Shown one piece after another: positions 9,183 through 48,943 of a stretch of DNA of 64,000 bases; within the stretch, counting starts at the first letter, position 1, and each line of letters starts with the position of its first letter. Below the pieces are notes generated by a model, which saw only the letters and a program-made list of their open reading frames with translations, searched no databases and had not been told where the DNA came from. The stretch is taken from NCBI GenBank assembly GCA_000092065.1, contig CP000593.1, one strand, 5' to 3'. The position numbers and the translations under genes are program-made. This DNA comes from Ostreococcus lucimarinus (Eukaryota).

Positions 9183-10633
9183 TCATCGCTTGCGCATGTT
9201 CACGCCCGCTCTGAGAACCTCATCCGTGCAGAGTAACTGCGTGGCGATGATGGGCGCAGAGTGCAGAATTTGCTGTTTGACGAGAAAGTTGTCGTAGATA
9301 CCACTCATGGTGGGGTCGAAGGGCTCGCCGATGCTGATATCGAAACCGACGACGTTGCCTCTGTCGTGCTCCTCTTGCATGTCGATGATGGCGTCTTGCG
9401 GATCGTAACCGCTGTTCTCCGCGAGTGTCTTCGGGACCACGAGCATGGCTTCCGCAAACGCCTCGACGCCGCGTTTCGCGCGACCTTCGACCATCTTGGT
9501 GACGTTCTCCTTCAAGTGCTTGTTCAAGGCCATCTCAAACGCACCCGCGCCCGGAACCACGGCCTTGTCGGTCAACACATTCTTCACCGCCCGCAAGCCA
9601 TCTCGCACCGCATCCTTGAGCTGTGCGATGGTGTGATCGTTCGAGCCTTTTAAAAGTACCGTGCACGACGTCGGGTTGACGACTTTTTCCACAAAAGTGT
9701 ACTTTTCCTCGCCCAAGACGTACTCGTACACTTCGCCGGCGTGGCCCAAAATTTCCGGCGAGAGTTCCTCAACAGAGTTGATGCATTGACCACCACATGC
9801 GAGGACGAGACGCTCCATGTTTCGGCGCTTGGCGCGACGAAGTCCCATAATGCCTTCCTTACAGAGCATGTCCAGAGAGATTGGGTCGATCCCCTTTTGT
9901 GTGATGACGACGAAACCCTTGTCGTTGCCGTCGCACACCTGCTTCTTGAGCGCGATCACCTTGCGCACGGTTTCATCGGTGTACGCGCGCTCGGCGGCGA
10001 CCATCTTCTCGCGCTGTTCCGCATCGGTGTACATGAACGTCGAGTTCACCTCCGATCGTTCGTATTCCAGGCTGATGTTACACGTCAACACGAACGCGTC
10101 CTCCACGTATCTCTTCATATCCGGATGTCTCGCCCCGTGGTCGAGGACCAAACCCTGAATCAATTTGGTTTCGTCATCCGTCTGATGCTTCATGGTCATG
10201 ATCTCCACCATGTGCAAATCGATCGACTCTTCCGGTTTGGCGATGCACAACACAGCGTCGACGACGATCGTCGTCAACTTATCAGCCAACTCTTCCCGCA
10301 ACTTTGTTCGCAACGCCGTGCGCGCCACGCACAACAACATTTCTCGATCCGGCGCTTCCACACCCGGCGCCGCGCGCTTGAACGTTTCCAAAAACTTCAG
10401 CGACTCGCGTTTCGCCACATCGAATCCCTCCACGATCACTCTCGGATGCAAACCCTCATTCAAATACCGCTCCGCTTGCTTCAACAACTCTCCGATGACG
10501 AGCACCGTCGTCGTCGTCCCGTCCCCGGTGATATCATCCTGCGCCACCGCCGTCCTCGCGATCATGATCGCCGTCGGGTTTTGAATCTGCATCTCTCTCA
10601 GCAGCACGTTCCCATCCTTCGTGAGCTTCAAAC
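9183..10633 (-). CDS. CCT6: T-complex protein 1 subunit zeta (CCT6), exon 2
   Basis: ...[21 protein letters not shown]...[17 protein letters not shown]...[15 protein letters not shown]...VPGAGAFE... aligns end-to-end with CCT-zeta. It joins exon 1 through a CAG acceptor with the motif tgcgtag|GTTTGAAG. Confidence 0.9.
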
Positions 10634-38176: not shown

Positions 38177-41100
38177 TCACTTTTCCATCCTTGCCGCTCG
38201 TTTCTTTTTAGCCTTCTCTTCCTCTCGAGCGAGTTTCAACGACCTGGACGCGACGAAGCCTTCAAACGTCAAATCGCCCGTCTTCGCGATCGCCTCCTCG
38301 TCCGAATCGATGTCGTCGTCGGTGTCGTCTTGCGCGAGGATTTGCCTGCCATCGCGCCACTTTAACGTGGACTTTCGGTTGTCGATGCCGATGATCTTGG
38401 CCGTGACGTCGCGGCGAGTCTCGTCTTCTTCTTCTGACGAATATTCGGCCGTTTGCAAACGGTCGCCGGTGTCGGTGTCAAACAGCTCTCGACTTTGATC
38501 GTGGACGTTGCGAGCGACGAAAACATCGCTCCAAAATTGACGCCACACCGCATCGCCGGAGAGCGTACACGTGCGCTTATTGATGATGATCATCGCTTGC
38601 AAGATGAAACCGTATCGCTCGTCGATGGTGACGTTAATCTTCGGGGGCGTTCCTTTCCACTTTTTGACGTCGATGGGCTCGGTCCAGCCGTATTTCACCA
38701 CGCGACGGTTGTTCTCCTCCTTAAAAGCCGTCGACTCCACGTTGCGCGTCGCGATGAATCGCCGCCATCGCGACAAATGAATGGGTTTATTGAGTGTGAG
38801 CTTTTTCGTCTCCACGCTGCAATGCATGTAGGCCAAGTAGCGCATCAAATAAACAATTCCACCGCCCAACGCCGACCACGCGAGCATGTTCAAGATGAAC
38901 CAAACCGCGGGAACATTCACTATGTACGGCTGCACCGCTTCGACGGCCCATCGAATCTCGGTGAACGAAAGGTATTGCCCCGTGAATCGATCGAGAATGT
39001 CAAACGCGAGCGTCCCCGACAAAATCACTTGCGTCACCTCGAGCGTGGTGCTGTTGCGCGCCTGCGCTCGGAAAGCATCCTCTAAGTTTTTCGTCGTCCC
39101 TTCTATCGCCTCGTTGATGCGGAGCTTTCTTCGTGAGCCGATGACGGCGTTCATTTCTCGCAGAGACTCGAGATCGTTGACGCACGCCGCGATGACTTTT
39201 TCCAAGTCAACGGCGCGTCTTTGCAAGCGTTTCCACGACGGTTCCAACTGAAACAAGTCGTACAACACTTGCGACGCGCCGTCGCTCATATCCGCGCTCA
39301 ACTTTTCACGAGACGTGTCGACGTTTTCGAGCGACTCGAGCACGAACTGCTGAGTGGCGCTCAAGATCGTCACCGTCGTCGTGTGATCGGCGAGGCGCGA
39401 ACGAATGCGCGTTACGTTCGTCGGATCGATCTGATAGGTTTCAATCAACGCTCGCGTCTTCTTCAACTCGTCGTTCAGCGCGAAACAACTGCTGAAGACA
39501 CTTTTGATGAACAACGAGCGAGCTTGGAACGCTGAATATGTCGCGAGAAGCTTGTGATGACGTTCGGTGCGCGGACCAAAGACGACGACACCGCGTGAAC
39601 CAAAGACGATGACTTCTTGTTCGTTCAGGTCGTACGCGTAAAACGTCGCGCCGATGACTTGCTTGAGCTCGTTTTCGTTATCTTCACCATCCATGTACGC
39701 CGCGGCTTTCAGTTTTGGCGTCGCGCGCTCGGCGATGATGCACGTAAACTTGTCGCGATTGTCCGGCTCGCCCTTGTATGTGATGTTCAACATGGAGCGC
39801 TGACGCTCGGAAAATAAATTTCCCACCAGCGAGCTCGTGTCTTCGTGGACGTCGGAAAGTAAGCGCGCGAGTAAATCGACGCTGATATCGTTTCGAATTC
39901 GATCGGCGATGCCGTTGACGACGATGCCGTAAGTGATGGCGCCGTTTTCCCGAAAGTTGATGCCGAAAACCTCGATTTGCTGCTGCACCAAGTTACTCTT
40001 GGGCGCCCCGGTGGCGAGCAAGTCTGCCTCGACGTTTACGAATCGCGTTTCGTCGACGTCGAGGACTTTTAGCTCGGTTTTATTGTCGGCGTTGATCCCG
40101 ACCACCATGTTGAATTCGTCCTGCGTCGCGCTCGCTTCCGCGGTGAACATACCGCCCGCGACGCGGTCTCCCGTGCCGAGTTTTCTACAGAAAGAAACCA
40201 TTTCGTTCGATCCCATCGGCACGTATTCGGTGACGATGATTTTCACCGAGTCGAGCAAGATACTTTCACTCAGGCGCGGGTCGCGAATATCGCGACTACT
40301 TTGAACGGCGCCGCCGAGCACGCGTTTTGCCTTTTTGTGCCCGTTCAACGCGTTCGGTGTGAACGCATCGGAGCTCAGCATGTGCGGAGGGATGTACGGA
40401 GACGAGACGTACGGCACGTCTTCGACGTCCGTGATGGTGGAGCGGATGCGGACCCCGATCGAGGGGACGGTGAGGAAAAAATCCGAGGACTCGCGGTCGT
40501 ACCGCACCTCGAGGAGGTGACCAGCTTCGTGCACCAACGAATCTACCGACTGGCGCATCGCGCTCGTGAACCGTCCCGAGGCCGTCATCCTCTGCAAGAA
40601 TTCGCTCCCCTTCTTGGAAATCTTCAACAACGTCGAGTGATCGTACGTCTCGCTCGTCACCTTGAGCGCCGTGATGAAACCAAGCTCACGCAAATCGTCT
40701 AAATCGTCTCGTCCCTCTTCCGAGACGTTCAAATACCTCGGACACGCTCCAAATATCTTTTCTGATTTTGGCGCGTAATCGTAATCGAACACCGCGTTTC
40801 GCACGATGCCCTCGTACACGAGCACCAGGAGCGGCAGCTCGCGAATCCAGGGAGAACGTTTGTTGTTGTTGTTGTTGGAAACCGCAGACTTCGACTTCGA
40901 CTGTTTCTGAGACGCGTCGGTGTACAAACTCAGCATGTACAACAATTTCAACGCCTCGGGCGATTCCTCCATCTCCCGCTCGCGCGACTCGACTTCCCGC
41001 CGACGCCGAGTCGTGGACGAGGCGGAAGTGCTCGAGTCGGCGTCTGAAGCGCTCGAGTCCCGGGCGTCCCGGGCGTAGTGCGAAGAATCATCGTCATCAT

Positions 41101-41236
41101 CGTCATCGTCGACGCGAATCGTTGCGTCCGAATCCGAATCGTAGCCCTGCGGCGCCCCGCATTCCGCGCACGTCGCCGCGCCGCCGCGCACGACGGCCCG
41201 GCACGTCGCGCACCGCGTCGAATCCATCGTATCCAC
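38177..41236 (-). CDS. Large conserved-looking hypothetical protein (1019 aa) with N-terminal Cys4 zinc ribbon, acidic tracts and C-terminal hydrophobic segment
   Basis: It is a single long ORF with normal codon composition. CATCRAVVRGGAATCAECGAP is a CxxC...CxxC motif. D/S/E-rich linkers follow, and there is a predicted TM segment PAVWFILNMLAWSALGGGIVYLM. I could not assign it to a named family. Confidence 0.6.
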   Translation of the reverse strand: MDTMDSTRCATCRAVVRGGAATCAECGAPQGYDSDSDATIRVDDDDDDDDSSHYARDARDSSASDADSSTSASSTTRRRREVESREREMEESPEALKLLYMLSLYTDASQKQSKSKSAVSNNNNNKRSPWIRELPLLVLVYEGIVRNAVFDYDYAPKSEKIFGACPRYLNVSEEGRDDLDDLRELGFITALKVTSETYDHSTLLKISKKGSEFLQRMTASGRFTSAMRQSVDSLVHEAGHLLEVRYDRESSDFFLTVPSIGVRIRSTITDVEDVPYVSSPYIPPHMLSSDAFTPNALNGHKKAKRVLGGAVQSSRDIRDPRLSESILLDSVKIIVTEYVPMGSNEMVSFCRKLGTGDRVAGGMFTAEASATQDEFNMVVGINADNKTELKVLDVDETRFVNVEADLLATGAPKSNLVQQQIEVFGINFRENGAITYGIVVNGIADRIRNDISVDLLARLLSDVHEDTSSLVGNLFSERQRSMLNITYKGEPDNRDKFTCIIAERATPKLKAAAYMDGEDNENELKQVIGATFYAYDLNEQEVIVFGSRGVVVFGPRTERHHKLLATYSAFQARSLFIKSVFSSCFALNDELKKTRALIETYQIDPTNVTRIRSRLADHTTTVTILSATQQFVLESLENVDTSREKLSADMSDGASQVLYDLFQLEPSWKRLQRRAVDLEKVIAACVNDLESLREMNAVIGSRRKLRINEAIEGTTKNLEDAFRAQARNSTTLEVTQVILSGTLAFDILDRFTGQYLSFTEIRWAVEAVQPYIVNVPAVWFILNMLAWSALGGGIVYLMRYLAYMHCSVETKKLTLNKPIHLSRWRRFIATRNVESTAFKEENNRRVVKYGWTEPIDVKKWKGTPPKINVTIDERYGFILQAMIIINKRTCTLSGDAVWRQFWSDVFVARNVHDQSRELFDTDTGDRLQTAEYSSEEEDETRRDVTAKIIGIDNRKSTLKWRDGRQILAQDDTDDDIDSDEEAIAKTGDLTFEGFVASRSLKLAREEEKAKKKRAARMEK

Positions 41237-41463
41237 CGATGGATTCGACCGCGGAGTGACGACGAACGAACGAACGCGCGAAAACCACCGACGTCCTCGC
41301 CCGAGCCCTCAACCTGTAACATTCGCGATCGCGGATCGACGGCGTCAAGCCGCGAAGATCTGTCGCAAACCCACCATCGAGCGACGTATAATACCAATTA
41401 TTCGTCCACCTCGCCGAGTTAAGCCTCGAAATAAAGAGCATGGGCAGTCGAATGTCCGCGATG

Positions 41464-41577
41464 TTGTGCGTATGCATAAACAGTCTTCCTTAACTCAGCT
41501 GGTAGAGTGTCAGACTGTTAGGAAAAAGTCTCCGTCGAATATGACGGCTGCTCCGATAGAGATCTGGAAGCCGCGGG
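41464..41577 (+). tRNA. tRNA-Asn(GUU)-like sequence with a 41-nt insertion (intron-like) between positions 37 and 38; possibly a pseudo-tRNA or SINE head
   Basis: The cloverleaf can be drawn by hand. Acceptor TCTTCCT pairs with AGGAAGA and the discriminator is G. D-arm ACTC-AGCTGGTA-GAGT has G18G19 and an A-box-like TAACTCAGCTGG. The anticodon stem is TCAGA/TCTGG and the loop CTGTTA|A carries anticodon GTT. The T-arm GCGGG-ATCGAAA-CCCGC is B-box-like. T5 lies ~25 nt downstream. Unusual features are U1-A72 and A54. Confidence 0.4.
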
Positions 41578-41700
41578 ATCGAAACCCGCAGGAAGAGATG
41601 TGTCGACATCAAACCTTACTTTTTCCCATACCCGATTGTCCGTGATGGAAAAGCGACACGACAACACTGTGACTTTCGTCGTTTCGGGGTGACGGATAGT
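41464..41700 (+). mobile_element. tRNA-derived SINE-like repeat, copy 1 (full length with tRNA-like head)
   Basis: A ~222-nt body from gctggtagag to tatcgct is near-identical to 47434..47655. It ends in an A-rich tract (actttaaaaaatttatcgct) and is followed by T9 and a GC inverted repeat. Confidence 0.6.
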
Positions 41701-41840
41701 ACTTTAAAAAATTTATCGCTATGAGTAATAAAAATAAACTTTTTTTTTGAGTTGGGGCACCCCAACATGATAAAACCGCACATCGACGTTGATGTACCGC
41801 ATGTAAGATTTCTCCAGAACCAATCGTGTGAGTGAAGTGG

Positions 41841-42338
41841 TCAAGCCAAGCCGCGTAACTCATCTACCGTAAATTGATACTTGTCGAGACTGCGCTTCGA
41901 AGGCAGCGTGCCGCGCGCTCGGGCATTCTTGAGGCACGTCTTGCGCAGTATTCCTTTTGCGTGCTGCTTGTAATAATTGAGTTGTCTGTAGTTACCATCG
42001 CCGCCGTCCCGCTTCGGCGTATATTGAGCTCTGCTGTAGGCTGGACTCTCGTCCACGTTCTCGCGGCACGCGTGTTTCTGGCTGCGTCCAGCAGCTCGGG
42101 AGTTGAATAAGCCGTCACGCTTCTCTCTCATGTAGGCACCTTTACGTTGATGGAGCTCTCCAGCTGGAATGTCCTTTTCGAGAACTCTCACGTCCGCGTC
42201 GCCAAACGTGAAGATTGGATGTCGTGCGTATTTATGCGAGGCAAGGCGCGCTCTGAGCGAACCCGTCGTCGATCCGATGTACGTTTTGTTACATTTCGCA
42301 TTATCGCTAAACATTTCGTACACGCATCCCGACGGCAT
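41841..42338 (-). CDS. Free-standing GIY-YIG endonuclease-domain protein (homing-endonuclease/viral-like), located in a low-GC island
   Basis: MPSGCVYEMFSDNAKCNKTYIGSTTGSLRARLASHKY matches GIY-(x10)-YIG-ST..L..R...H. A downstream ...LFNS... supplies the conserved Asn region. The C-terminal 70 aa are basic. The ORF GC (~52%) is well below its neighbours (~68%). There is no RING, so it is not SLX1. Confidence 0.6.
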   Translation of the reverse strand: MPSGCVYEMFSDNAKCNKTYIGSTTGSLRARLASHKYARHPIFTFGDADVRVLEKDIPAGELHQRKGAYMREKRDGLFNSRAAGRSQKHACRENVDESPAYSRAQYTPKRDGGDGNYRQLNYYKQHAKGILRKTCLKNARARGTLPSKRSLDKYQFTVDELRGLA

Positions 42339-42521
42339 TTGTCCTGGTTACCTATCTATCCCTAAGAAAATATTGTTGCCAAAAGTGCCTCCTCCTGCGG
42401 TTTGCAGTCACATCCGAGAGACCATAGGTACGCGTATCGCTGCGTGGGCTGCAAGGTCCGGAATGTAGATACCGAACCGCCTGATTTCACACCTGGACGT
42501 TCGTGATCCGTCGAGACCTGA

Positions 42522-42710
42522 CGAAATGACGAACTTGTTTTGTCGTCCACAAATTCGTCAACCCGTCGTTCGGTGACACTTTGTGTGTACCAATGATGAA
42601 AATGACGAAATGTTAAAATATTTTAATGTTTATTTTTATTTTAGATCTATGACAAGCAACAGTGTGGACCTTTATGAAAACAGTTCGTCATTCGTCATTT
42701 CGTCAGGATC
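42522..42710. repeat. Inverted repeat pair (ctgacgaaatgacgaac ... gttcgtcat(tcgtcat)ttcgtcag) flanking an extremely AT-rich ~150-bp spacer, with a third direct copy (gaaaatgacgaaatg) inside
   Basis: The ~17-bp arms are reverse complements of each other, and the spacer is >75% A+T. Confidence 0.5.
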
Positions 42711-42772
42711 CAAACCATGGTCTTTTTGGTGTCTCGTTGAGTCTTCATATTGCAAATGTACGAATTACAAAA

Positions 42773-43069
42773 TTAGTATGAGCACCAGACGACCGCCGGC
42801 GCGAGCTCCGTCTCCCCTGTGTACCCATTGTCCTTCAGCCACTCGAAGCACCCGTCGCGGTGAATTTCCCAATAGACGCCCTTCTCGTCTCTACCTTGCC
42901 TCAGGTGGTCCTCTTCCATTGGGACCCTGTGGCCCTTTTCCTTCTTGAAGAAGTCCTTGAGCTTATTGCCGACCTTCGTCGCGCTATCTTGACCGCGCGC
43001 AGCCGCTGGCAACCACGTCTGGTATTCGATGAAGATGTCACTGTGTGCATAAAAATGACTTGCGCTCAC
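42773..43069 (-). CDS. Small ORF (98 aa) of unknown function downstream of ZNG1; it may be UTR rather than a gene
   Basis: The ORF opens with GTG and has no ATG until codon 51. Its composition is not GC-skewed (...GVYWEIHRDGCFEWLKDNGYTGE...). A TGTAA on this strand follows directly after its stop. Confidence 0.25.
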   Translation of the reverse strand: MSASHFYAHSDIFIEYQTWLPAAARGQDSATKVGNKLKDFFKKEKGHRVPMEEDHLRQGRDEKGVYWEIHRDGCFEWLKDNGYTGETELAPAVVWCSY

Positions 43070-43169
43070 ATCGGTGTGGGCTCACTATAAAGGACAAGCT
43101 TACATGTCGGAAGAGTTGCCCGAGTCCACATCTCCACCCTGTTCCGCTTCAGTGTCACCTAGAAAGACA

Positions 43170-44810
43170 TCAGACTAAGCCGTCGTTTTGAGAGGGCGCC
43201 GACTTTGCCTTTGGTTTTGCCTTCGACTTTGAAGTGGGTTGCGGCCTGATCTCCTCTTCGATCTCCTCGTCGTCGACCAAATCTTCGTCGATTTCTTCGT
43301 CGTCTTCGTCATCGACTTCGTCGTCTTCGTCTTCGTCGTCTTCGTCTAGAAAGACATCACCCATGACTGCTCTCCAGCCATCAGAACCCATTTCGAATTC
43401 TTCGTCGGTCAAGAGGCAAGAGTCCAACGTTGATTGAATTTCATCGTATTTAAGATCCTTGCCAATGAACACCAGTTCTTGTCGGCGATCACCATAAGGC
43501 CCCTCCCAGTCTTTACGAAGTTCTTGCTTTATCCCCTGTGAGCCGACCCAAGCATTTTTATTCAGCGCGGTCCATCGGCTTGATCCTTCGAGAGAGTAAA
43601 TATTACCAGCCTGACTGAAAACAATTATCAAGTCGTGGGCATCACTGAGCCACGTTACACCCTTCGAACGTAGCAGCACACCAATTTCACCTTCCCTTTT
43701 ACGGCGCTTGAGTTTCATCGCTTCTTGTCGCGCTCGAATATCTTTCACTGCACTCCAGTCTACACTTGGTGTCTCTTCATCTTTTTCTTCATCACGGTCA
43801 TCGGCCTCGAGGGAGCTGAAGAAGCGCTCGACAAATGAGCCTAAAAACCGTTTGGGATGAAAAGGTCTTCTGGCTCGGTAAATGAAAGACGTAATACCGA
43901 ACCGACTATCGTGACGTGTTTGGGAAGAACTTGGTGCAAGCGTGACCTCGCTTAAGGCTGTTTCTCTCATGCGAGCTCGCTTACAGCATGGAGACTCACC
44001 TTTGTCCCTAGCGCCGGCGCAGCATGACTTCACAGATGTTGCTTCTATCTCTTGTTCCCATGTTATGAAACCAGCAAAGTCATTCTCTTTGTAAAGTTTT
44101 GTATTGACGATTCGCGTAACGTCGATCGCGCCGTTCACAGCTTCAAGAATATCAGCACGTGAATTGAGAAGTTGTATCTGCGCTTTAATCTCGGCGAGTT
44201 GTTCGTCATCGACAGTGTCGACCTTGTTCAATACGACGACATTCGCGTACTCTATCTGTTCAGCCAACAATTGAGAGTAAGACTGCCTGTTCACAGCTGA
44301 CGCCCTGAAAGAATCAATCATGTCGAGAAAGTCACCTGCAGCGATGACCGTCACGCACGTATCCAGCCGCGCCAGTGTGCTCAAATGTTCATGCTCATCA
44401 ACGTGCGCAGCTTCATGATCGTGATCGTCCTCACAATTTGCGAAGAGTTTCGCAATTTCCGCCGGTTCCGACACTCCTGATGCCTCTACGATCATGTAGT
44501 CAAAATTGCCACTCTTGGCCATGTCCCCGATTTGTTTTACAAAGTCTCCGCTCAACGAACAGCACACGCATCCGTTCTGCATGGCAACCACCTCGTCGCT
44601 CTGCAGCAAAGCGGAATCATCGATTAATTTTTTGTCGATGTTCAACTCCGCGACGTCGTTCACGACGACGGCACACCGAAACTTTCCGTTCGCGTCTCGC
44701 TTAGCTTCGAGCACGCGTTTCAGAGTTGTCGTCTTCCCAGCGCCGAGGAACCCGCACAGCGTTGTCACCGGCAATCGATTATGATTGGCGATTGCGGCGG
44801 GTGTGGACAT
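43170..44810 (-). CDS. ZNG1: COG0523/CobW-family GTPase (ZNG1-like zinc metallochaperone) with acidic C-terminal tail
   Basis: PVTTLCGFLGAGKTTTLKRVL is the P-loop. The CxCC metal-binding motif is present in ...MQNGCVCCSLSGD.... A CobW_C domain and a D/E-rich tail follow. The ATG is at 44810. Confidence 0.85.
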   Translation of the reverse strand: MSTPAAIANHNRLPVTTLCGFLGAGKTTTLKRVLEAKRDANGKFRCAVVVNDVAELNIDKKLIDDSALLQSDEVVAMQNGCVCCSLSGDFVKQIGDMAKSGNFDYMIVEASGVSEPAEIAKLFANCEDDHDHEAAHVDEHEHLSTLARLDTCVTVIAAGDFLDMIDSFRASAVNRQSYSQLLAEQIEYANVVVLNKVDTVDDEQLAEIKAQIQLLNSRADILEAVNGAIDVTRIVNTKLYKENDFAGFITWEQEIEATSVKSCCAGARDKGESPCCKRARMRETALSEVTLAPSSSQTRHDSRFGITSFIYRARRPFHPKRFLGSFVERFFSSLEADDRDEEKDEETPSVDWSAVKDIRARQEAMKLKRRKREGEIGVLLRSKGVTWLSDAHDLIIVFSQAGNIYSLEGSSRWTALNKNAWVGSQGIKQELRKDWEGPYGDRRQELVFIGKDLKYDEIQSTLDSCLLTDEEFEMGSDGWRAVMGDVFLDEDDEDEDDEVDDEDDEEIDEDLVDDEEIEEEIRPQPTSKSKAKPKAKSAPSQNDGLV

Positions 44811-44867
44811 GATGTACGGCGATCGACGTCTCCGCGCGCGAACGAGCCGAAGAGGCGTCGCGAAGTG

Positions 44868-45142
44868 CGGCGATGCGCGCGCGTCGTGCACGTGTCGACG
44901 ATTCGCGTCGTGCACGTGTCGAGGATCGTCGTACGCGACGCCCCGCGAAGCCCATCACGGATCGCGTCGCGACGCGCGTCGTAAACATGTCGACACGCAT
45001 GTCGACATATTTACCCACGCGCGTGTACGCATTGAACCCCGTGATGCATCTATATACGAAAAACGTCTCGACGCACATGTCGACATATTTCGACATATCC
45101 AAGTACCACCGAGATGTGTCGACACTGCGGCGGATGTCGACA
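44868..45142. promoter_or_regulatory. Cluster of GTCGAC-centred palindromes (5x [A]TGTCGACA[T], plus a 2x 23-nt tandem cgtcgtgcacgtgtcga(c/g)g) in the ZNG1/ZIP bidirectional promoter
   Basis: ATGTCGACA occurs at ~44987, 45000, 45078, 45117 (as TGTGTCGACA) and 45135. Two copies extend to CATGTCGACATATTT. The tandem repeat with CACGTGTCGAC lies at ~44875-44925. Confidence 0.55.
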
Positions 45143-45368
45143 TTTTGTCGTTCGCGAGTCGTGACTTATAAACGACCGCCCTCCATCGCGCCGGTTCGGT
45201 TCGTATGCCGCTTTAGTTTGTGCGCAGCCGCACTTACCGACGCCGGCGAAGACGACGACGACGACGGAAACGATGACGAACGAAAACACGAAGAACACGA
45301 AGACGACGATGCCGCCGCGCGAACGCGCACGCGGTGCGAGGACGGTCGAGCGACGACGAGGGCGAACG

Positions 45369-46802
45369 ATGCGCTGCGCGAGCGCGCTCGGTGGTGGCAT
45401 CGCGATCGTCGCGAGCGCGCTCGCGCAGCGCGGCGCGCACGCGTCCGGCGCGCACGCATTCGAATGGGCTGGAATCTTTGAGACGCCAGAGAATGAATAC
45501 GTGTGGCAGGCGCAAAAGGTGGCCGATAAGTACGCCGCCGATACCATGAAAATGGTCATCTACGACGAAATCGCCGCCGGACACGACGAGCTCGAAGCCC
45601 GCGAGGATAGCGGTGATACCGCAATCGGGGGAGCTTGTACGACGGCTAAGATACGAGATAGTGTTTTGACACCTGATAGTGGGTGTGTCAACCTTGAATT
45701 TGACAACACCTGGCACACGACGCCGTTTAAGATTAATACGACTGGCATCGACGCGATCTCAATCTTCGCTGAGCACGTTCCCACCGAGTTCGAGCGCGAC
45801 GCGCACTATCTCAAGGACCTCCACGGAGATGACGTGGTGCCAAAAGCTTCACTTCCCGAAGCATCCACCGTGAGCGAATCGAAATCAAAACCGTGGGCCA
45901 ACGCCATTGGGGCGGCAATTATCGTCAATATCGTCACACTTTCTGGTGTGGTCTTTCTCATCCCGAGTATCGCTAAGAAGCAGAAAGCGTACCCTGAAAC
46001 TGTGAGTTGCACAATTAACTCGTTTGCCGCCGGCGCACTTCTTTCGGCTGCGTTTTATCTGATGTTCTACGAAGCCACGCATTTAATCAAACCTGCTGGC
46101 TCGGATGAGGCAGAGCAGACCGCATGGTGGGCTTCCGCTTCTATCTTCGGCTTTCTCATGGCCTACTTCATCGACTTTGGTATCTCTGTCGTGTTCCCAA
46201 CTCTTGGAAATACAGCGAAGACAACCGATGCGGAACTTGCAGTCAAAGGCGCTCAAGATGACTGTGATACTTGTACTTGTAACTCACACAAGTATCGCGT
46301 TCGAAGTGGTATCATTCTTGGAGATTTCATGCACAACCTAGTGGATGGTATTTTCATTGGCTTCGGCTTTCTGAACTGCGACAGTACCATGGGATGGTCG
46401 ATCACCGCCGCGACCGTCTATCACGAAATCGCTCAAGAGCTTGCTGACTACTTGGTGCTCGTAGACCCCTTCCAGGGCGATCTCGCGCCGTTGCCGACGC
46501 TGACTTTAAACTTCGTTTCCGGCTTGAGTGTCATTCTTGGCGTCCTCATTAGTGTTGGATCGGGAAATAACAACGACTTCTGGCATGGACTGCTGCTCGC
46601 CTTCGGTGCTGGAGTCTATCTGCAAATCGCCGCCGCAGAGTGCATGCCCCGAGTATCAGTGAGCGCCACTTCACCTCGTCTTCGCGCGACGAGCATTCTC
46701 ACCTTCATCGTCGGCGTTGTTGCCATCAGTCTCGTGCTCCTCAACCACAAGCATTGCACAGGCGGTGGCGGTGGCGGAGACTCACACGCACACGCGCACT
46801 AA
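45369..46802 (+). CDS. ZIP (Zrt/Irt-like) family metal transporter
   Basis: MRCASALGGGIAIVASALA is a signal peptide. Multiple TM segments follow. HNLVDGIFIGFGF and YHEIAQELADYLVL are variants of the ZIP TM-IV and TM-V motifs HNFxDGLAIG and HEIPHELGDF. The C-terminus has a His-rich stretch HKHCTGGGGGGDSHAHAH. Confidence 0.75.
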   Translation: MRCASALGGGIAIVASALAQRGAHASGAHAFEWAGIFETPENEYVWQAQKVADKYAADTMKMVIYDEIAAGHDELEAREDSGDTAIGGACTTAKIRDSVLTPDSGCVNLEFDNTWHTTPFKINTTGIDAISIFAEHVPTEFERDAHYLKDLHGDDVVPKASLPEASTVSESKSKPWANAIGAAIIVNIVTLSGVVFLIPSIAKKQKAYPETVSCTINSFAAGALLSAAFYLMFYEATHLIKPAGSDEAEQTAWWASASIFGFLMAYFIDFGISVVFPTLGNTAKTTDAELAVKGAQDDCDTCTCNSHKYRVRSGIILGDFMHNLVDGIFIGFGFLNCDSTMGWSITAATVYHEIAQELADYLVLVDPFQGDLAPLPTLTLNFVSGLSVILGVLISVGSGNNNDFWHGLLLAFGAGVYLQIAAAECMPRVSVSATSPRLRATSILTFIVGVVAISLVLLNHKHCTGGGGGGDSHAHAH

Positions 46803-46906
46803 TGAGAGCGGTAAAAAAATGTCAATTACTATCAAATCAAGTTGTGGCAAACACACCCACGGCCACTGACGGAGATCTATTTTTCAAGCTAGAGGATCAT
46901 ATAAAT

Positions 46907-46911
46907 TGTAA
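46907..46911 (+). promoter_or_regulatory. TGTAA poly(A)-signal-like motif downstream of the ZIP gene
   Basis: aaattgTGTAAatcg lies ~105 nt after the stop at 46802. Confidence 0.35.
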
Positions 46912-47025
46912 ATCGAAACGCTCTTCGTAATTTACGGCACCTGTTCCTCGATCTCCTGGCGAACATCGATGAATTATTTCGATAAGATGTCCCAGATGTT
47001 ACCCACACCACGGTACTTGTGAAGC

Positions 47026-47137
47026 TTAATCCAGATACGCGCGCACGCCTTTCTGAAGCATGGTCGGTACCTCGGCTTTCAACTTGTCTGGGAGCGTCGC
47101 GTCGGCGTCCTTGACCTCGCGCAGAAAATCGAGCACC
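47026..47137 (-). CDS. Small hypothetical protein, exon 2
   Basis: It encodes ...VLDFLREVKDADATLPDKLKAEVPTMLQKGVRAYLD*. This frame is reached only by removing a 53-nt intron. Confidence 0.35.
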
Positions 47138-47190
47138 CTATTGGTGGAGAACTGTCAGGGAAGGATCCAAGGTGGCGGCATTTGATACAC
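47138..47190 (-). other. Putative 53-nt intron (GTGTAT...CTGAC...AATAG) in the small hypothetical gene
   Basis: The donor is CT|GTGTATC and the acceptor is ccaccaatAG|G. CTGAC lies ~14 nt upstream of the acceptor. The length of 53 nt restores a long ORF across the two flanking frames. Confidence 0.35.
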
Positions 47191-47369
47191 AGGTTGCGCC
47201 AGGCTTTGTTAGACAGCAACGGACTCGATTTTACATCATCCGCCAGTATTGCAATTCCTACACGCTTCCCATTTAGCCAGTGCTTGGGCTCCTCGAATTG
47301 GTCTGTTTCGGGATTATACAGACTGAGCATCTCTGGGGTCAAATACTCGTCCCACACGGAGGCGTTCAT
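47191..47369 (-). CDS. Small hypothetical protein, exon 1 (from first ATG)
   Basis: It encodes MNASVWDEYLTPEMLSLYNPETDQFEEPKHWLNGKRVGIAILADDVKSSPLLSNKAWRN. Its composition is moderate in GC and coding-like. The ORF opens upstream at a TTG. An acceptor-like tttacAG lies just 3' of repeat copy 2. Confidence 0.35.
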
Positions 47370-47433
47370 CAGGTGCCCATCGAGTTCCTTGTATTGCTTC
47401 AATCTCGTCGCGGTATCTCTGTAAACAATTTTG

Positions 47434-47655
47434 CTGGTAGAGTGTCAGACTGTTAGGAAAAAGTCTCCGTCGAATATGACGGCTGCTCCGATAGAGATCT
47501 GGAAGCCGCGGGATCGAAACCCGCAGGAAGAGATGTGTCGACATCACACCTTACTTTTTCCCACACCCGATTGTCCGTGATGGAAAAGCGACACGACAAC
47601 ACTGTGACTTTCGTCGTTTCGGGGTGACGGATAGTACTTTAAAAAATTTATCGCT
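47434..47655 (+). mobile_element. tRNA-derived SINE-like repeat, copy 2 (5'-truncated, begins in the D-loop)
   Basis: It is ~98% identical to 41478..41700. It lacks the first 14 nt of the tRNA-like head. It is followed by a 12-bp palindrome, CCCCCATGGGGG. Confidence 0.6.
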
Positions 47656-47770
47656 GTGAGATTCACCCCCATGGGGGGAGCTCGGCTTCCCTGATTTTTT
47701 TGTCACTTTTTCACGACGCCGCGAACCCCTCGTCCCGAACTCCGAGACGCGACGCGAGACATCCATCCCA

Positions 47771-48943
47771 TCACACGAGTCGCCCCCCCGCGAGATAATC
47801 GGCGACTCGCACGACGCGCGCGTTCGCGTCGAACGCGCCCGCGTGGACGTCGTCGTCGCCCGCCGCGAGCGCGGCGCCTTCGTCGTCGAAATCCACCTCG
47901 TCGAGCGCTCGGTAGCTCTCCATCAACGCGGGATCTTTGGCGGCCATGAGCTTTAAATCTTCCAACACGCGGTCCAGATTGACGTCGTCGACGAAGTTTC
48001 CCGCGAACGCCACCGTGCAATCGAGGTTTCGAACGGCGTGCGGCGAGCCGCCCGGCACGAAAAGCACCTCGCCCGGGCCAAGATCGACGTCCCATCGGCG
48101 CGCGCCGAATTCACGCGGGAGCGGTAACATTCCCATCTCTTCTTGTTCCTCCAACGGTGGCATCGCGGGATCGAGCGTGCCGCGCGACCAGCTCGGCCGT
48201 AAAAACGCGAGCGATTCGCGCGAGAAGACGGTCCATCGCTTCGTGCCGCGCACCACGGCCATGAAAAAGTGCCCCTGCCACTGATCGACGTGCAGGGACG
48301 ATCGCGTGTTCTTCGCGGCGACAAACAAGCTCGGCCACGACCGTGAAAATGCCGTCAATCGCATCGTGCGCTGCATGTAATCGTGTGCCACGTACGCCGG
48401 TACGCGCACGCTCTCCGACAACGACGGCAGCTTGAGCGGAATCGACGTGTCGTACAAGTAACTCCCCGCCCCTCGATCGTCCACGACTTCCGCGAAAAAG
48501 TCCTTTAAATCCAAAACGTCCGTCACCTCGCACGACAGCGTCGCGCGTCGGTGACCATCCTTCCTCGTGACGGCGACTTTTTTATTCCCGGCGCGCCGCG
48601 TCAACCACGCGCACGTCTCGCCGTCCGCGCCGTCCTCCGTCAGCGCGCTCCCGAGCCCCTCGATCACGACCGGGGTATCCGTGGCGACGTATTCGAGTCG
48701 AAAACGTCGCGGCGTGAGATCGCGCGCGTGCACGCGCGCGACGTCGCGTCCCGTCGTCGTCGGTTTTTCGACACCCGAATCTGCGGCGGCGGCGGCGGCG
48801 AGCGTCGCGCGCGCGCGCTCGACGCGCGCGACGATCGCGTCGACGTACGCGCGACGACCGTCGTCGGTCTCTCGGGCAGCGCGCGCGGCGAGATCGGCGC
48901 GCTCGACGTCGAGGCGCGCGATCTCTTCGTCGAAAAGCGTCAT
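47771..48943 (-). CDS. JmjC-domain (cupin-like 2OG/Fe(II) oxygenase) protein
   Basis: ...SSLHVDQWQGHFFMAVVRGTKRWTVF... (Hx(D/E) region) and ...GEVLFVPGGSPHAVRNLDCTVAFAGNF (distal His) fit the JmjC double-stranded beta-helix. The ORF starts with ATG. Confidence 0.75.
   Translation of the reverse strand: MTLFDEEIARLDVERADLAARAARETDDGRRAYVDAIVARVERARATLAAAAAADSGVEKPTTTGRDVARVHARDLTPRRFRLEYVATDTPVVIEGLGSALTEDGADGETCAWLTRRAGNKKVAVTRKDGHRRATLSCEVTDVLDLKDFFAEVVDDRGAGSYLYDTSIPLKLPSLSESVRVPAYVAHDYMQRTMRLTAFSRSWPSLFVAAKNTRSSLHVDQWQGHFFMAVVRGTKRWTVFSRESLAFLRPSWSRGTLDPAMPPLEEQEEMGMLPLPREFGARRWDVDLGPGEVLFVPGGSPHAVRNLDCTVAFAGNFVDDVNLDRVLEDLKLMAAKDPALMESYRALDEVDFDDEGAALAAGDDDVHAGAFDANARVVRVADYLAGGRLV

Follow-up and report, generated by a model that had tools for sequence, protein, structure and literature searches.

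A probable genomic island of polinton-like virus debris and a zinc-gene pair at a nuclear tRNA-Asn gene of Ostreococcus lucimarinus

What was inserted beside the nuclear tRNA-Asn(GUU) gene of Ostreococcus lucimarinus, and how did it get there? The question arises from a 64,000-nucleotide (nt) stretch of this genome (contig CP000593.1 of assembly GCA_000092065.1; hereafter, the window), in which the guanine-plus-cytosine (GC) content falls abruptly next to a tRNA gene. An initial annotation, made from the sequence alone, described a 2-kb island at 41240-43170 with a tRNA-like short interspersed nuclear element (SINE), a GIY-YIG endonuclease open reading frame (ORF) and inverted repeats. According to our analysis, these 2 kb are probably the left end of a composite island of ~5.7 kb (~5.9 kb including one repeat) that lies in the tRNA-Asn gene. 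The description that we consider likely to be the best is a strain-variable, tRNA-Asn-associated genomic island consisting of polinton-like virus (PLV) debris and a pair of zinc-associated genes.

A strain-variable block at the tRNA-Asn gene

The drop in GC content is real: the value is 0.50 at 41240-43170 and 0.62 for the whole window. The boundaries first drawn around it did not hold, since low GC (0.47-0.57) persists rightward past 43170 to ~47.7 kb. The foreign block that forms the actual unit is 41726-47432 (GC 0.518), and it is bounded by direct repeats, each of which comprises the 3' part of the tRNA and 128 nt of flanking sequence. The GIY-YIG ORF (GC 0.54) had been singled out as differing from its flanking genes, and this could not be maintained, because the right-hand CobW (0.50) and ZIP (0.55) genes are equally atypical. 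Codon usage, a check that the annotation had proposed for this ORF, gave a clear result: GC at third codon positions (GC3) is 0.60 in the GIY-YIG gene, 0.525 in CobW, 0.62 in ZIP, 0.56 in a helicase fragment and 0.61 in ORF107 (47079-47402), against 0.70-0.86 in most host ORFs of the window, both flanking genes included.

The block is a presence/absence polymorphism within O. lucimarinus-like populations, because wild contigs 97-99% identical to the window are empty at this site (L024, L030, L031) while others carry the island (L003-L011, L025, L026). One of the latter, L003, spans the whole island from the JmjC gene on one side through the MJ1567-like gene on the other. The site is also empty in two sister lineages (L016/L017, L027/L028) and in two more distant species (L018, L019). 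In contigs whose orthologue of the left host gene is 91%, 66% or 58% identical, the JmjC gene is directly adjacent, 575-800 bp away, and the spacer between the two contains no ZIP, CobW or GIY-YIG gene. The spacer of the 91% lineage, 574 bp long, holds the same tRNA-Asn gene in the same orientation, and this tRNA gene is likewise present at the orthologous empty site of L016, L024, L030 and L031. A tRNA-like sequence in L018 was dropped from consideration, as it could not be parsed as a complete tRNA. The ancestral order is JmjC, tRNA-Asn, MJ1567-like gene, with nothing between. An island at the orthologous position in relatives, with host-typical codon usage and cellular SLX1-type orthologues, had been named as the pattern that would contradict a mobile origin; the block is absent from all relatives examined, its GC3 is atypical, and the relatives of the GIY-YIG ORF reside in virus-like contigs and not among cellular SLX1-type genes. 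The general reading of the annotation, a horizontally acquired or mobile insertion that is partly a virus remnant, is borne out by these observations.

The target site is the intact nuclear tRNA-Asn(GTT) gene at 41484-41597 on the plus strand (Rfam RF00005, 49 bits, E 1.8e-7), the one tRNA that Rfam reports in the window. Its intron of 41-42 nt occupies the canonical 37/38 position; run in intron mode, ARAGORN identifies the gene as tRNA-Asn(gtt) and its intron as 41 nt long, and a default ARAGORN run detected no tRNA in the window. Direct repeat copy A (attL-like; 41498-41725, plus strand) extends from D-loop position ~15 of this gene to its 3' end and through 128 nt of 3' flank. Copy B (attR-like; 47433-47660, plus strand) is a tRNA-Asn truncated by 14 nt at the 5' side and followed by 128 nt of flank. 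The two copies lie 5.9 kb apart and are identical at 225 of 228 positions. The annotation had thus correctly noticed an intron-containing tRNA-Asn-like sequence at the head of a repeat that recurs 6 kb away.

Its classification as a tRNA-derived SINE was rejected. Copy A belongs to the resident gene, and copy B is a 5'-truncated duplicate that starts inside the D-loop, lacks the first 14 tRNA nt and part of the A box, and carries its 128 nt beyond the RNA polymerase III terminator. The repeat overruns the first terminator of five T residues (T5) by ~100 nt and has no poly(A) or simple-repeat tail. Target-site duplications, which the annotation proposed to seek at the GC transition points, were not found in the flanks of the repeat copies. 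The copy number in the window is two, and dispersed copies were not found: a scan of JGI metagenomes with a 25-mer covering the tRNA anticodon and intron returned 11 loci, all of them this locus, and the corresponding scan of IMG/VR gave no match.

The two genes that flank the island are both on the minus strand and outside it. On the left, a host gene of 1016 amino acids (aa) with an MJ1567/MJ1566_N domain lies at 38177-41227; its orthologues adjoin JmjC in L016-L019. Its overall GC is low, its GC3 (0.73) is host-typical, and the sister lineage has equal values. On the right, the JmjC/cupin host gene lies at 47771-48943 (XP_001421140.1). Four ORFs of the window match database proteins of O. 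lucimarinus CCE9901 exactly, including this one and the GIY-YIG ORF (XP_001421138.1 / XP_001422817.1). The proteins encoded at 41841-42338 and 47771-48943 have two NCBI accessions each (ABO99431/ABP01176 and ABO99433/ABP01174, respectively), which suggests that the locus appears twice in the deposited genome, either because a segment is duplicated or because a record is.

Polinton-like virus fragments and the GIY-YIG gene

The left part of the block, 41726-43044 (minus strand), is a piece of PLV genome that comprises the GIY-YIG gene, an iteron module and the 3' end of a primase-helicase gene, as judged by identity to L013, L001 and L002. Nucleotide identity across 41720-43044 is 94.7% to L013 and 93% to L001, and 42516-43044 is 93.6% identical to positions 3479-4006 of L002, which hold the helicase gene 3' end and the downstream spacer. 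All three contigs carry the primase-helicase gene, and L002 encodes the capsid module as well. The last ~90 codons of the PrimPol/superfamily-3 helicase are found at 42773-43044 (minus strand) and correspond to the C-terminus of a 733-aa L002 protein (PF09250, PF19263). Comparison with L013 places the break point at 43044/43045, inside the helicase coding sequence. The 98-aa ORF in this region extends to 43069 only by chance read-through. It was also considered as a spliced exon, and this was rejected: the ORF is the helicase gene 3' end, and its 'intron-like' neighbor is the CobW 3' end, which is polymorphic in length by 173 nt. Searches of the 98-aa ORF and the GIY-YIG ORF against PHROGs and Pfam gave nothing except a weak GIY-YIG match.

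Within this piece, the inverted-repeat pair around an AT-rich spacer reported by the annotation was confirmed. Its arms (42517-42533 and 42691-42707) are 17 nt long, 100% complementary and 157 nt apart, and a perfect 17-nt pair within 450 bp far exceeds chance. They enclose, arms included, a module of 191 nt (42517-42707) with an AT-rich core and seven TGACGAA/TTCGTCA heptamers, of 23 in the whole 64 kb. In an alignment of five copies (one in the window, one each in L001 and L013, and two in L002), similarity begins and ends at the repeat arms, and the two L002 copies bracket the primase-helicase gene. We guess that the module is a candidate viral replication origin or regulatory element. The single IMG/VR match to a 17-nt arm, L020, was rejected as a chance match, for this contig has 41% GC and no further similarity.

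The other contigs indicate the kind of genome from which these fragments would come. In L002 and L015, a gene for PrimPol plus DUF5906 (a D5-like superfamily-3 helicase) is followed by a gene of 430-530 aa and then by the GIY-YIG gene, and the order primase-helicase, intervening gene, GIY-YIG is kept in L002, L015 and L042. L014 shows the order 406-aa gene, GIY-YIG, 162-aa gene, and the matching 162-aa protein of L002 hits a DNA-methyltransferase PHROG. The 446-aa protein of L002 has no Pfam match. Its AlphaFold model, built on an alignment of 35 homologues, reached a predicted local distance difference test score (pLDDT) of 87 and a predicted template modeling score (pTM) of 0.88, and Foldseek matched the model to the double jelly-roll capsid proteins of SGIV and PBCV-1 (Vp54) with E ~1e-16, and also to those of Sputnik and PR772. 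This protein family is therefore predicted to fold as a double jelly-roll capsid protein. IMG/VR contains seven viral contigs of 7-23.5 kb with related capsid proteins (7/7), penton-like proteins (6/7) and ATPases (5/7), and one of the seven also encodes PrimPol and GIY-YIG. Primase-superfamily-3 helicases and standalone GIY-YIG genes are part of the known PLV gene content (Yutin et al. 2015, PMC4642659; PMC12220804), and one or two PLV/virophage-type capsid genes per Ostreococcus genome have been described (Bellas et al. 2023, PMC10120064). By sequence similarity, then, the source of the fragments is a polinton-like virus. No capsid gene lies in the window, and its ATPase gene is reduced to a 95-aa fragment; the window therefore holds PLV-derived fragments and not a PLV.

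A remnant of a prasinovirus or another nucleocytoplasmic large DNA virus, as suggested initially, did not fit these data: no prasinovirus or other named viral protein occurs among the 32 homologues of the GIY-YIG protein, and 93-95% nucleotide identity to PLV contigs was found instead. When the GIY-YIG and PrimPol proteins were each scanned against IMG/VR, a method that finds close relatives only, no relative was returned.

The viral fragment at the right end lies at 47124-47405 (minus strand), in ORF 47079-47402, and is an internal part (residues ~114-209) of a PLV packaging ATPase. Compared by tblastn with PLV ATPase genes from IMG/VR, it matched L040 with E 2.8e-13 and 32% identity and L039 with E 6e-11. 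Full-length packaging ATPases in IMG/VR have 296-324 aa, and neither the Walker A part nor the C-terminal third is present in the 95-aa fragment. The ORF has no Pfam match. Its pairwise comparison with the partial ATPase of L002 (E 0.003) was unconvincing, and only the full-length IMG/VR ATPases gave significant matches.

The GIY-YIG ORF at 41841-42338 (minus strand; 165 aa) is intact, as the annotation had stated, and lies 115 nt from the end of repeat copy A. Pfam PF01541 matches residues 4-37 of the window protein with 16.7 bits, compared with a gathering cut-off of 22.6; across the family, it matches 11 of 14 members at E<=0.01, the best at 6.5e-7. All of the 32 homologues except the O. 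lucimarinus entries are metagenome proteins. The motifs 'GCVYEM' and 'KTYIGST' are present with a GIY/YIG spacing of ~10 residues, and Y20, G22, S23, T24, R31, H35 and N79 are invariant in the 14-sequence alignment. The AlphaFold model (pLDDT 72.9) contains strands 3-10, 19-24 and 49-58 and helices 28-37 and 59-72, that is, the beta-beta-alpha-beta-alpha core. In Foldseek, the best match was the I-TevI catalytic domain 1ln0 (E 0.02, probability 1.0), followed by Slx1 and UvrC; a search of PDB sequences with the family profile gave nothing relevant. Homologues at 49-63% identity all have 'REGE', and the window protein, P0003 and P0005 have 'QRKGA' or 'QRKSA', so that codon 66 (42141-42143) specifies Lys in place of the 'REGE' Glu in the window protein and in its whole 90% cluster. 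From a manual motif alignment, the replaced Glu is the predicted catalytic residue, corresponding to E75 of I-TevI. The protein is thus probably a GIY-YIG family member of doubtful activity.

The annotation had proposed a free-standing homing-endonuclease cassette. The sporadic presence typical of homing endonucleases was not observed, since the gene order is kept in L002, L015 and L042, and no evidence of homing was found in the contigs compared. Because its position downstream of the primase-helicase is conserved, the GIY-YIG gene is predicted to belong to the viral core or accessory genes and not to the mobile homing endonucleases, and the Lys at the predicted catalytic Glu also speaks against the cassette. 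A second paralogue in the same 90% cluster, XP_001421474.1, is encoded on another chromosome (708,927-bp contig) and may mark another PLV insertion.

The copies in L001 and L013 carry frameshifts and can be regarded as decaying insertions for that reason. The ratio of nonsynonymous to synonymous substitution rates (dN/dS) of the window copy versus other copies is 0.12-0.24, a value that is silent on selection after insertion; it suggests that the divergence between the copies built up while the genes were functional and the virus was active. The GIY-YIG ORF is intact and its dN/dS among copies is low despite the Lys at codon 66. Most likely, the viral genes in the island are non-functional debris.

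Metal-related cargo and inserts in the tRNA gene

Between the viral fragments lie two intact ORFs in divergent orientation, both absent from the orthologous position in relatives. One encodes a CobW/G3E-family GTPase of 546 aa (43170-44810, minus strand; Pfam cobW 6e-41, CobW_C 1.5e-18), and the other encodes a ZIP-family metal transporter (45273-46802, plus strand; Pfam Zip 1.2e-21). The pair (43170-46802) belongs to zinc-associated families, and its GC3 is the lowest of the window. Among CobW cluster representatives, the nearest are 45-53% identical; one of them lies in a contig with a Gram-negative lipopolysaccharide operon and another in a eukaryote-like contig. The CobW gene varies in length at its 3' end, where the window and L009 contain an additional 173 nt (43173-43345) flanked by a 14-nt direct repeat, ctagaaagacatca. 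With these nucleotides, the protein has 546 aa and a long acidic tail; without them, in L003, L010 and L025, it has 507 aa. The zinc-gene pair is candidate selectable cargo. A ZIP transporter and a CobW-type metallochaperone would be plausible targets of selection in metal-poor seawater, and if the cargo is adaptive, virus-associated DNA would be a route of gene gain in picophytoplankton.

The tRNA gene itself varies in a second way. Many wild haplotypes carry extra inserts, one of 100 nt in the D-loop (ins1; window site 41499/41500) and one of 87 nt in the T-stem (ins2; 41588/41589), and the reference strain has neither. Inserts occur in L003-L010, L016/L017 and L021-L030. A further insert, of 96 nt, was found in the anticodon stem of the tRNA-Asn in L019, which is another species (intergenic region 9332-10000). 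We scored them by the features of spliceosomal introns, namely a 5' splice site reading GTRAGT, a 3' splice site reading YAG and, 26-38 nt ahead of the latter, a CTGAC branch box. In all three, the first six nucleotides are GTAAGT or GTGAGT, the last three are CAG or TAG, CTGAC stands 26-38 nt before that end, and T runs do not exceed three residues; removal of the inserts in silico restores a canonical tRNA-Asn. A bulge-helix-bulge reading, assessed by eye, was rejected: only ins2 has a 4-bp complementarity (AAGT/ACTT), and ins1 and the L019 insert have none. Since both O. lucimarinus inserts are also present in sister lineages, they are old, with precise loss in some haplotypes, the reference strain among them.

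We therefore raise, tentatively, the possibility that this nuclear tRNA-Asn is interrupted by genuine spliceosomal introns beside its canonical intron, at no fewer than three positions, i.e., at least in the D-loop, anticodon stem and T-stem; from the sequence features we hold this to be somewhat less probable than an even chance. In the literature searched, we came across no description of tRNA genes with spliceosomal introns, and the locus raises the question whether a tRNA precursor can carry them. If the introns are true and this is the sole tRNA-Asn gene, spliceosomal processing of its precursor would be obligatory. Transcription might then start from an upstream TATA-like element and not from the split A box. 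Such an element, CGTATAATACCAA.TATTCGTCCACCTCGCC, is located at 41385-41415, ~95 nt upstream of the tRNA, and is also present in the L016 intergenic region; it is conserved between lineages despite the diverged surrounding spacer and could be a candidate upstream promoter. A promoter at this position would matter because the D-loop insert splits the A box.

Proposed integration at the tRNA gene and comparison with known systems

The relation of the repeats to the tRNA gene is the key to how the island may have arrived. The block starts 3' of tRNA position ~16, so that the proximal repeat completes an intact tRNA and the distal repeat is a 5'-truncated one. In the wild contigs, copies A have the GACAACACTGTGAC allele throughout, unlike the empty-site haplotypes. 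Copy B in most wild island contigs has the 87-nt T-stem insert and the flank allele GACAAAACTGTAAC, the flank allele common to the empty sites, most of which also have the insert. In L003 and L009, for example, copy A lacks the 87-nt insert and its flank allele is distinct, and copy B has the insert and the empty-site allele. Copy B of the reference strain has the A-type allele and no 87-nt insert, which fits a later gene conversion; L010 shows the reciprocal conversion.

A different island was found at the same place. Two JGI contigs, L021 (240-4079; Ga0228638_1001034) and L022 (Ga0315315_10038975), carry a second island of 3.84 kb at the same D-loop junction, with GC 0.63, a 487-aa ORF that ends inside the truncated tRNA copy, and ~30-nt units repeated ~11 times in tandem. 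It has no GIY-YIG gene and no similarity to the window island or to the PLV contigs. Its distal truncated tRNA starts at the same nucleotides (GC/TGGTAGAG). In its proximal tRNA 3' part, the exons are identical and the canonical intron and trailer are different, and therefore this 3' part came in with the element. The site of the D-loop insert coincides within 2 nt with the junction used by both islands.

Two further contigs bear on this gene. In the other species represented by L019, a short second copy of the tRNA 3' end and terminator is present ~130 nt 3' of the tRNA-Asn (GCAGGAAGAGCGCTTTTTTTGATAGG vs CAGGAAGAGTTATTTTTGATGGG), a possible scar left by an earlier integration into, or excision from, this gene. 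In L012 (ENA ERZ922745 k127_323979), window 45095-47523 is joined to 41588-42551 via a single recombinant repeat, so that the side with ZIP and the ATPase fragment meets the GIY-YIG side. This one contig may represent an excised circle, a tandem copy or an assembly chimera.

The order intact tRNA, island, truncated tRNA, the allele pattern of copies A and B, and the second island lead us to propose Campbell-type integration. A circular DNA with a tRNA-Asn 3' segment would recombine with the chromosomal gene in or near the D-loop, by either site-specific or homologous recombination. The host 5' part would be joined to the 3' part borne by the element, and the original host 3' part would be displaced to the far end, which is why copies A and B would be expected to show the alleles that they do. 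Deletion, mosaic rearrangement and gene conversion between the repeats would later have led to the present structure.

Several points weigh against this interpretation. No integrase or recombinase domain was recognized in any island ORF, and neither Pfam nor PDB gave a match to the 487-aa ORF of the second island. A tRNA-Asn segment usable as attP was seen in no PLV contig examined, and in a survey of PLV insertions in cryptophytes, no integration site had a tRNA gene within 1 kb (PMC12220804). The window copies A and B differ at only 3 of 228 positions, so that in-situ duplication followed by slight divergence would also fit the first island alone. CobW and ZIP may be of bacterial, viral or algal origin, the nearest cluster representatives being ~52% identical and divided between a bacterial and a eukaryote-like contig. 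Finally, the right junction falls within the ATPase gene, of which the remaining fragment shares only ~32% identity with known ATPases; therefore, the island is a mosaic with truncated viral genes at both ends, not one clean PLV integration or a single intact provirus.

Some of these points are what one would expect if a double-strand break just 3' of the tRNA had been repaired by the copying of unrelated DNA, namely viral debris and a stretch with the zinc genes, the 228-nt duplication having arisen by replication slippage or staggered repair, with no dedicated integration system and only an incidental association with the tRNA. A mosaic of truncated genes with no integrase, nearly identical repeats in the window and a GAG microhomology at the left PLV junction all suit such non-specific capture. 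We nonetheless consider it unlikely, because it does not account for an unrelated second island that shares the D-loop junction nucleotide and brings a divergent tRNA 3' part, and because the alleles of copies A and B fit an exchange of the tRNA 3' part; the short duplicate of the tRNA 3' end ~130 nt downstream in L019 likewise suggests an older event in another species. The shared junction could also be attributed to the nuclease. Phage T4 SegB promotes homing within a tRNA gene cluster, and here the PLV GIY-YIG protein would cut the tRNA-Asn D-loop, the element being copied in by homology-directed repair via its tRNA-homologous segment. The gene is close to the end of repeat A (115 nt), its fold is closest to I-TevI, and the 100-nt intron and both islands share one D-loop position within 2 nt. 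This explanation appears very improbable, as the second island lacks a GIY-YIG gene, the gene is syntenic in PLVs with no tRNA association, and a Lys aligns with the Glu of the relatives' conserved REGE.

The composite first suggested, in which a SINE and a free-standing GIY-YIG homing cassette, or a prasinovirus or giant-virus remnant, make up a 2-kb mobile insertion, has in its favor the co-occurrence of a tRNA-related repeat, a GIY-YIG ORF and low GC, and the fact that the homing endonuclease I-TevI is the best match to the ORF in structure. It is given almost no credence here: the repeat has two copies only (11/11 metagenome matches at this locus) and runs 100 nt past T5 with no tail or target-site duplications, the GIY-YIG position is conserved in viral contigs with Lys at the predicted catalytic Glu, no named viral homologue was found, and the insertion is 5.7 kb and not 2 kb.

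Integration at the tRNA gene as proposed above would make a nuclear tRNA gene a recurrent integration site at which incoming DNA replaces the tRNA 3' part. The island is polymorphic in natural populations and can therefore be tracked in ocean metagenomes, and the locus is a concrete place to seek a eukaryotic mechanism of site-specific or homology-driven integration.

Cargo-carrying elements are known from other eukaryotes. Fungal Starships are giant transposons with site-specific insertion that move adaptive cargo, metal-related genes among it, from strain to strain; they exceed the present island by far in size, and their defining feature is a tyrosine recombinase with DUF3435, the 'captain'. 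No such captain was detected in the island. With the I-TevI and Seg-type GIY-YIG endonucleases, the window protein would share the N-terminal GIY-YIG fold of ~90 aa, the GIY-like and YIG motifs, and the Arg, His and Asn residues; it differs in the fixed position of its gene in viral genomes and in the Lys at the predicted catalytic Glu.

A close eukaryotic parallel in content is provided by the endogenous PLV insertions in protists (PMC4642659, PMC10120064). The left 1.3 kb and the ATPase fragment would come from the same virus family, which is characterized by a double jelly-roll capsid protein, a penton protein, a packaging ATPase, a PrimPol-superfamily-3 helicase, a standalone GIY-YIG gene and a methyltransferase, and decayed, frameshifted copies are present in L001 and L013. 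The difference is that here only fragments are found, attached to a tRNA-derived direct repeat and with two cellular-type metal genes between them. In architecture, the island resembles the tRNA islands of bacteria and archaea, such as the Klebsiella tRNA-Asn islands (PMC4891358): insertion at the tRNA 3' part, which leaves an intact tRNA on one side and a partial repeat on the other, atypical composition, presence or absence among strains, different islands at the same tRNA, adaptive-looking cargo and remnants of mobility genes. It differs from them in its location in a eukaryotic nucleus, in a crossover in the D-loop/anticodon half where theirs is usually at the 3' end, and in a 228-nt repeat that includes 128 nt of flank, with no tyrosine integrase recognized. 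Endogenous PLVs of protists are already known; a bacterial-type genomic island in a nuclear tRNA gene would be unusual for a eukaryote. Cargo islands targeted to tRNA genes are a hallmark of bacteria and archaea, and at this locus such an island appears to be joined with PLV sequences in one of the smallest free-living eukaryotes.

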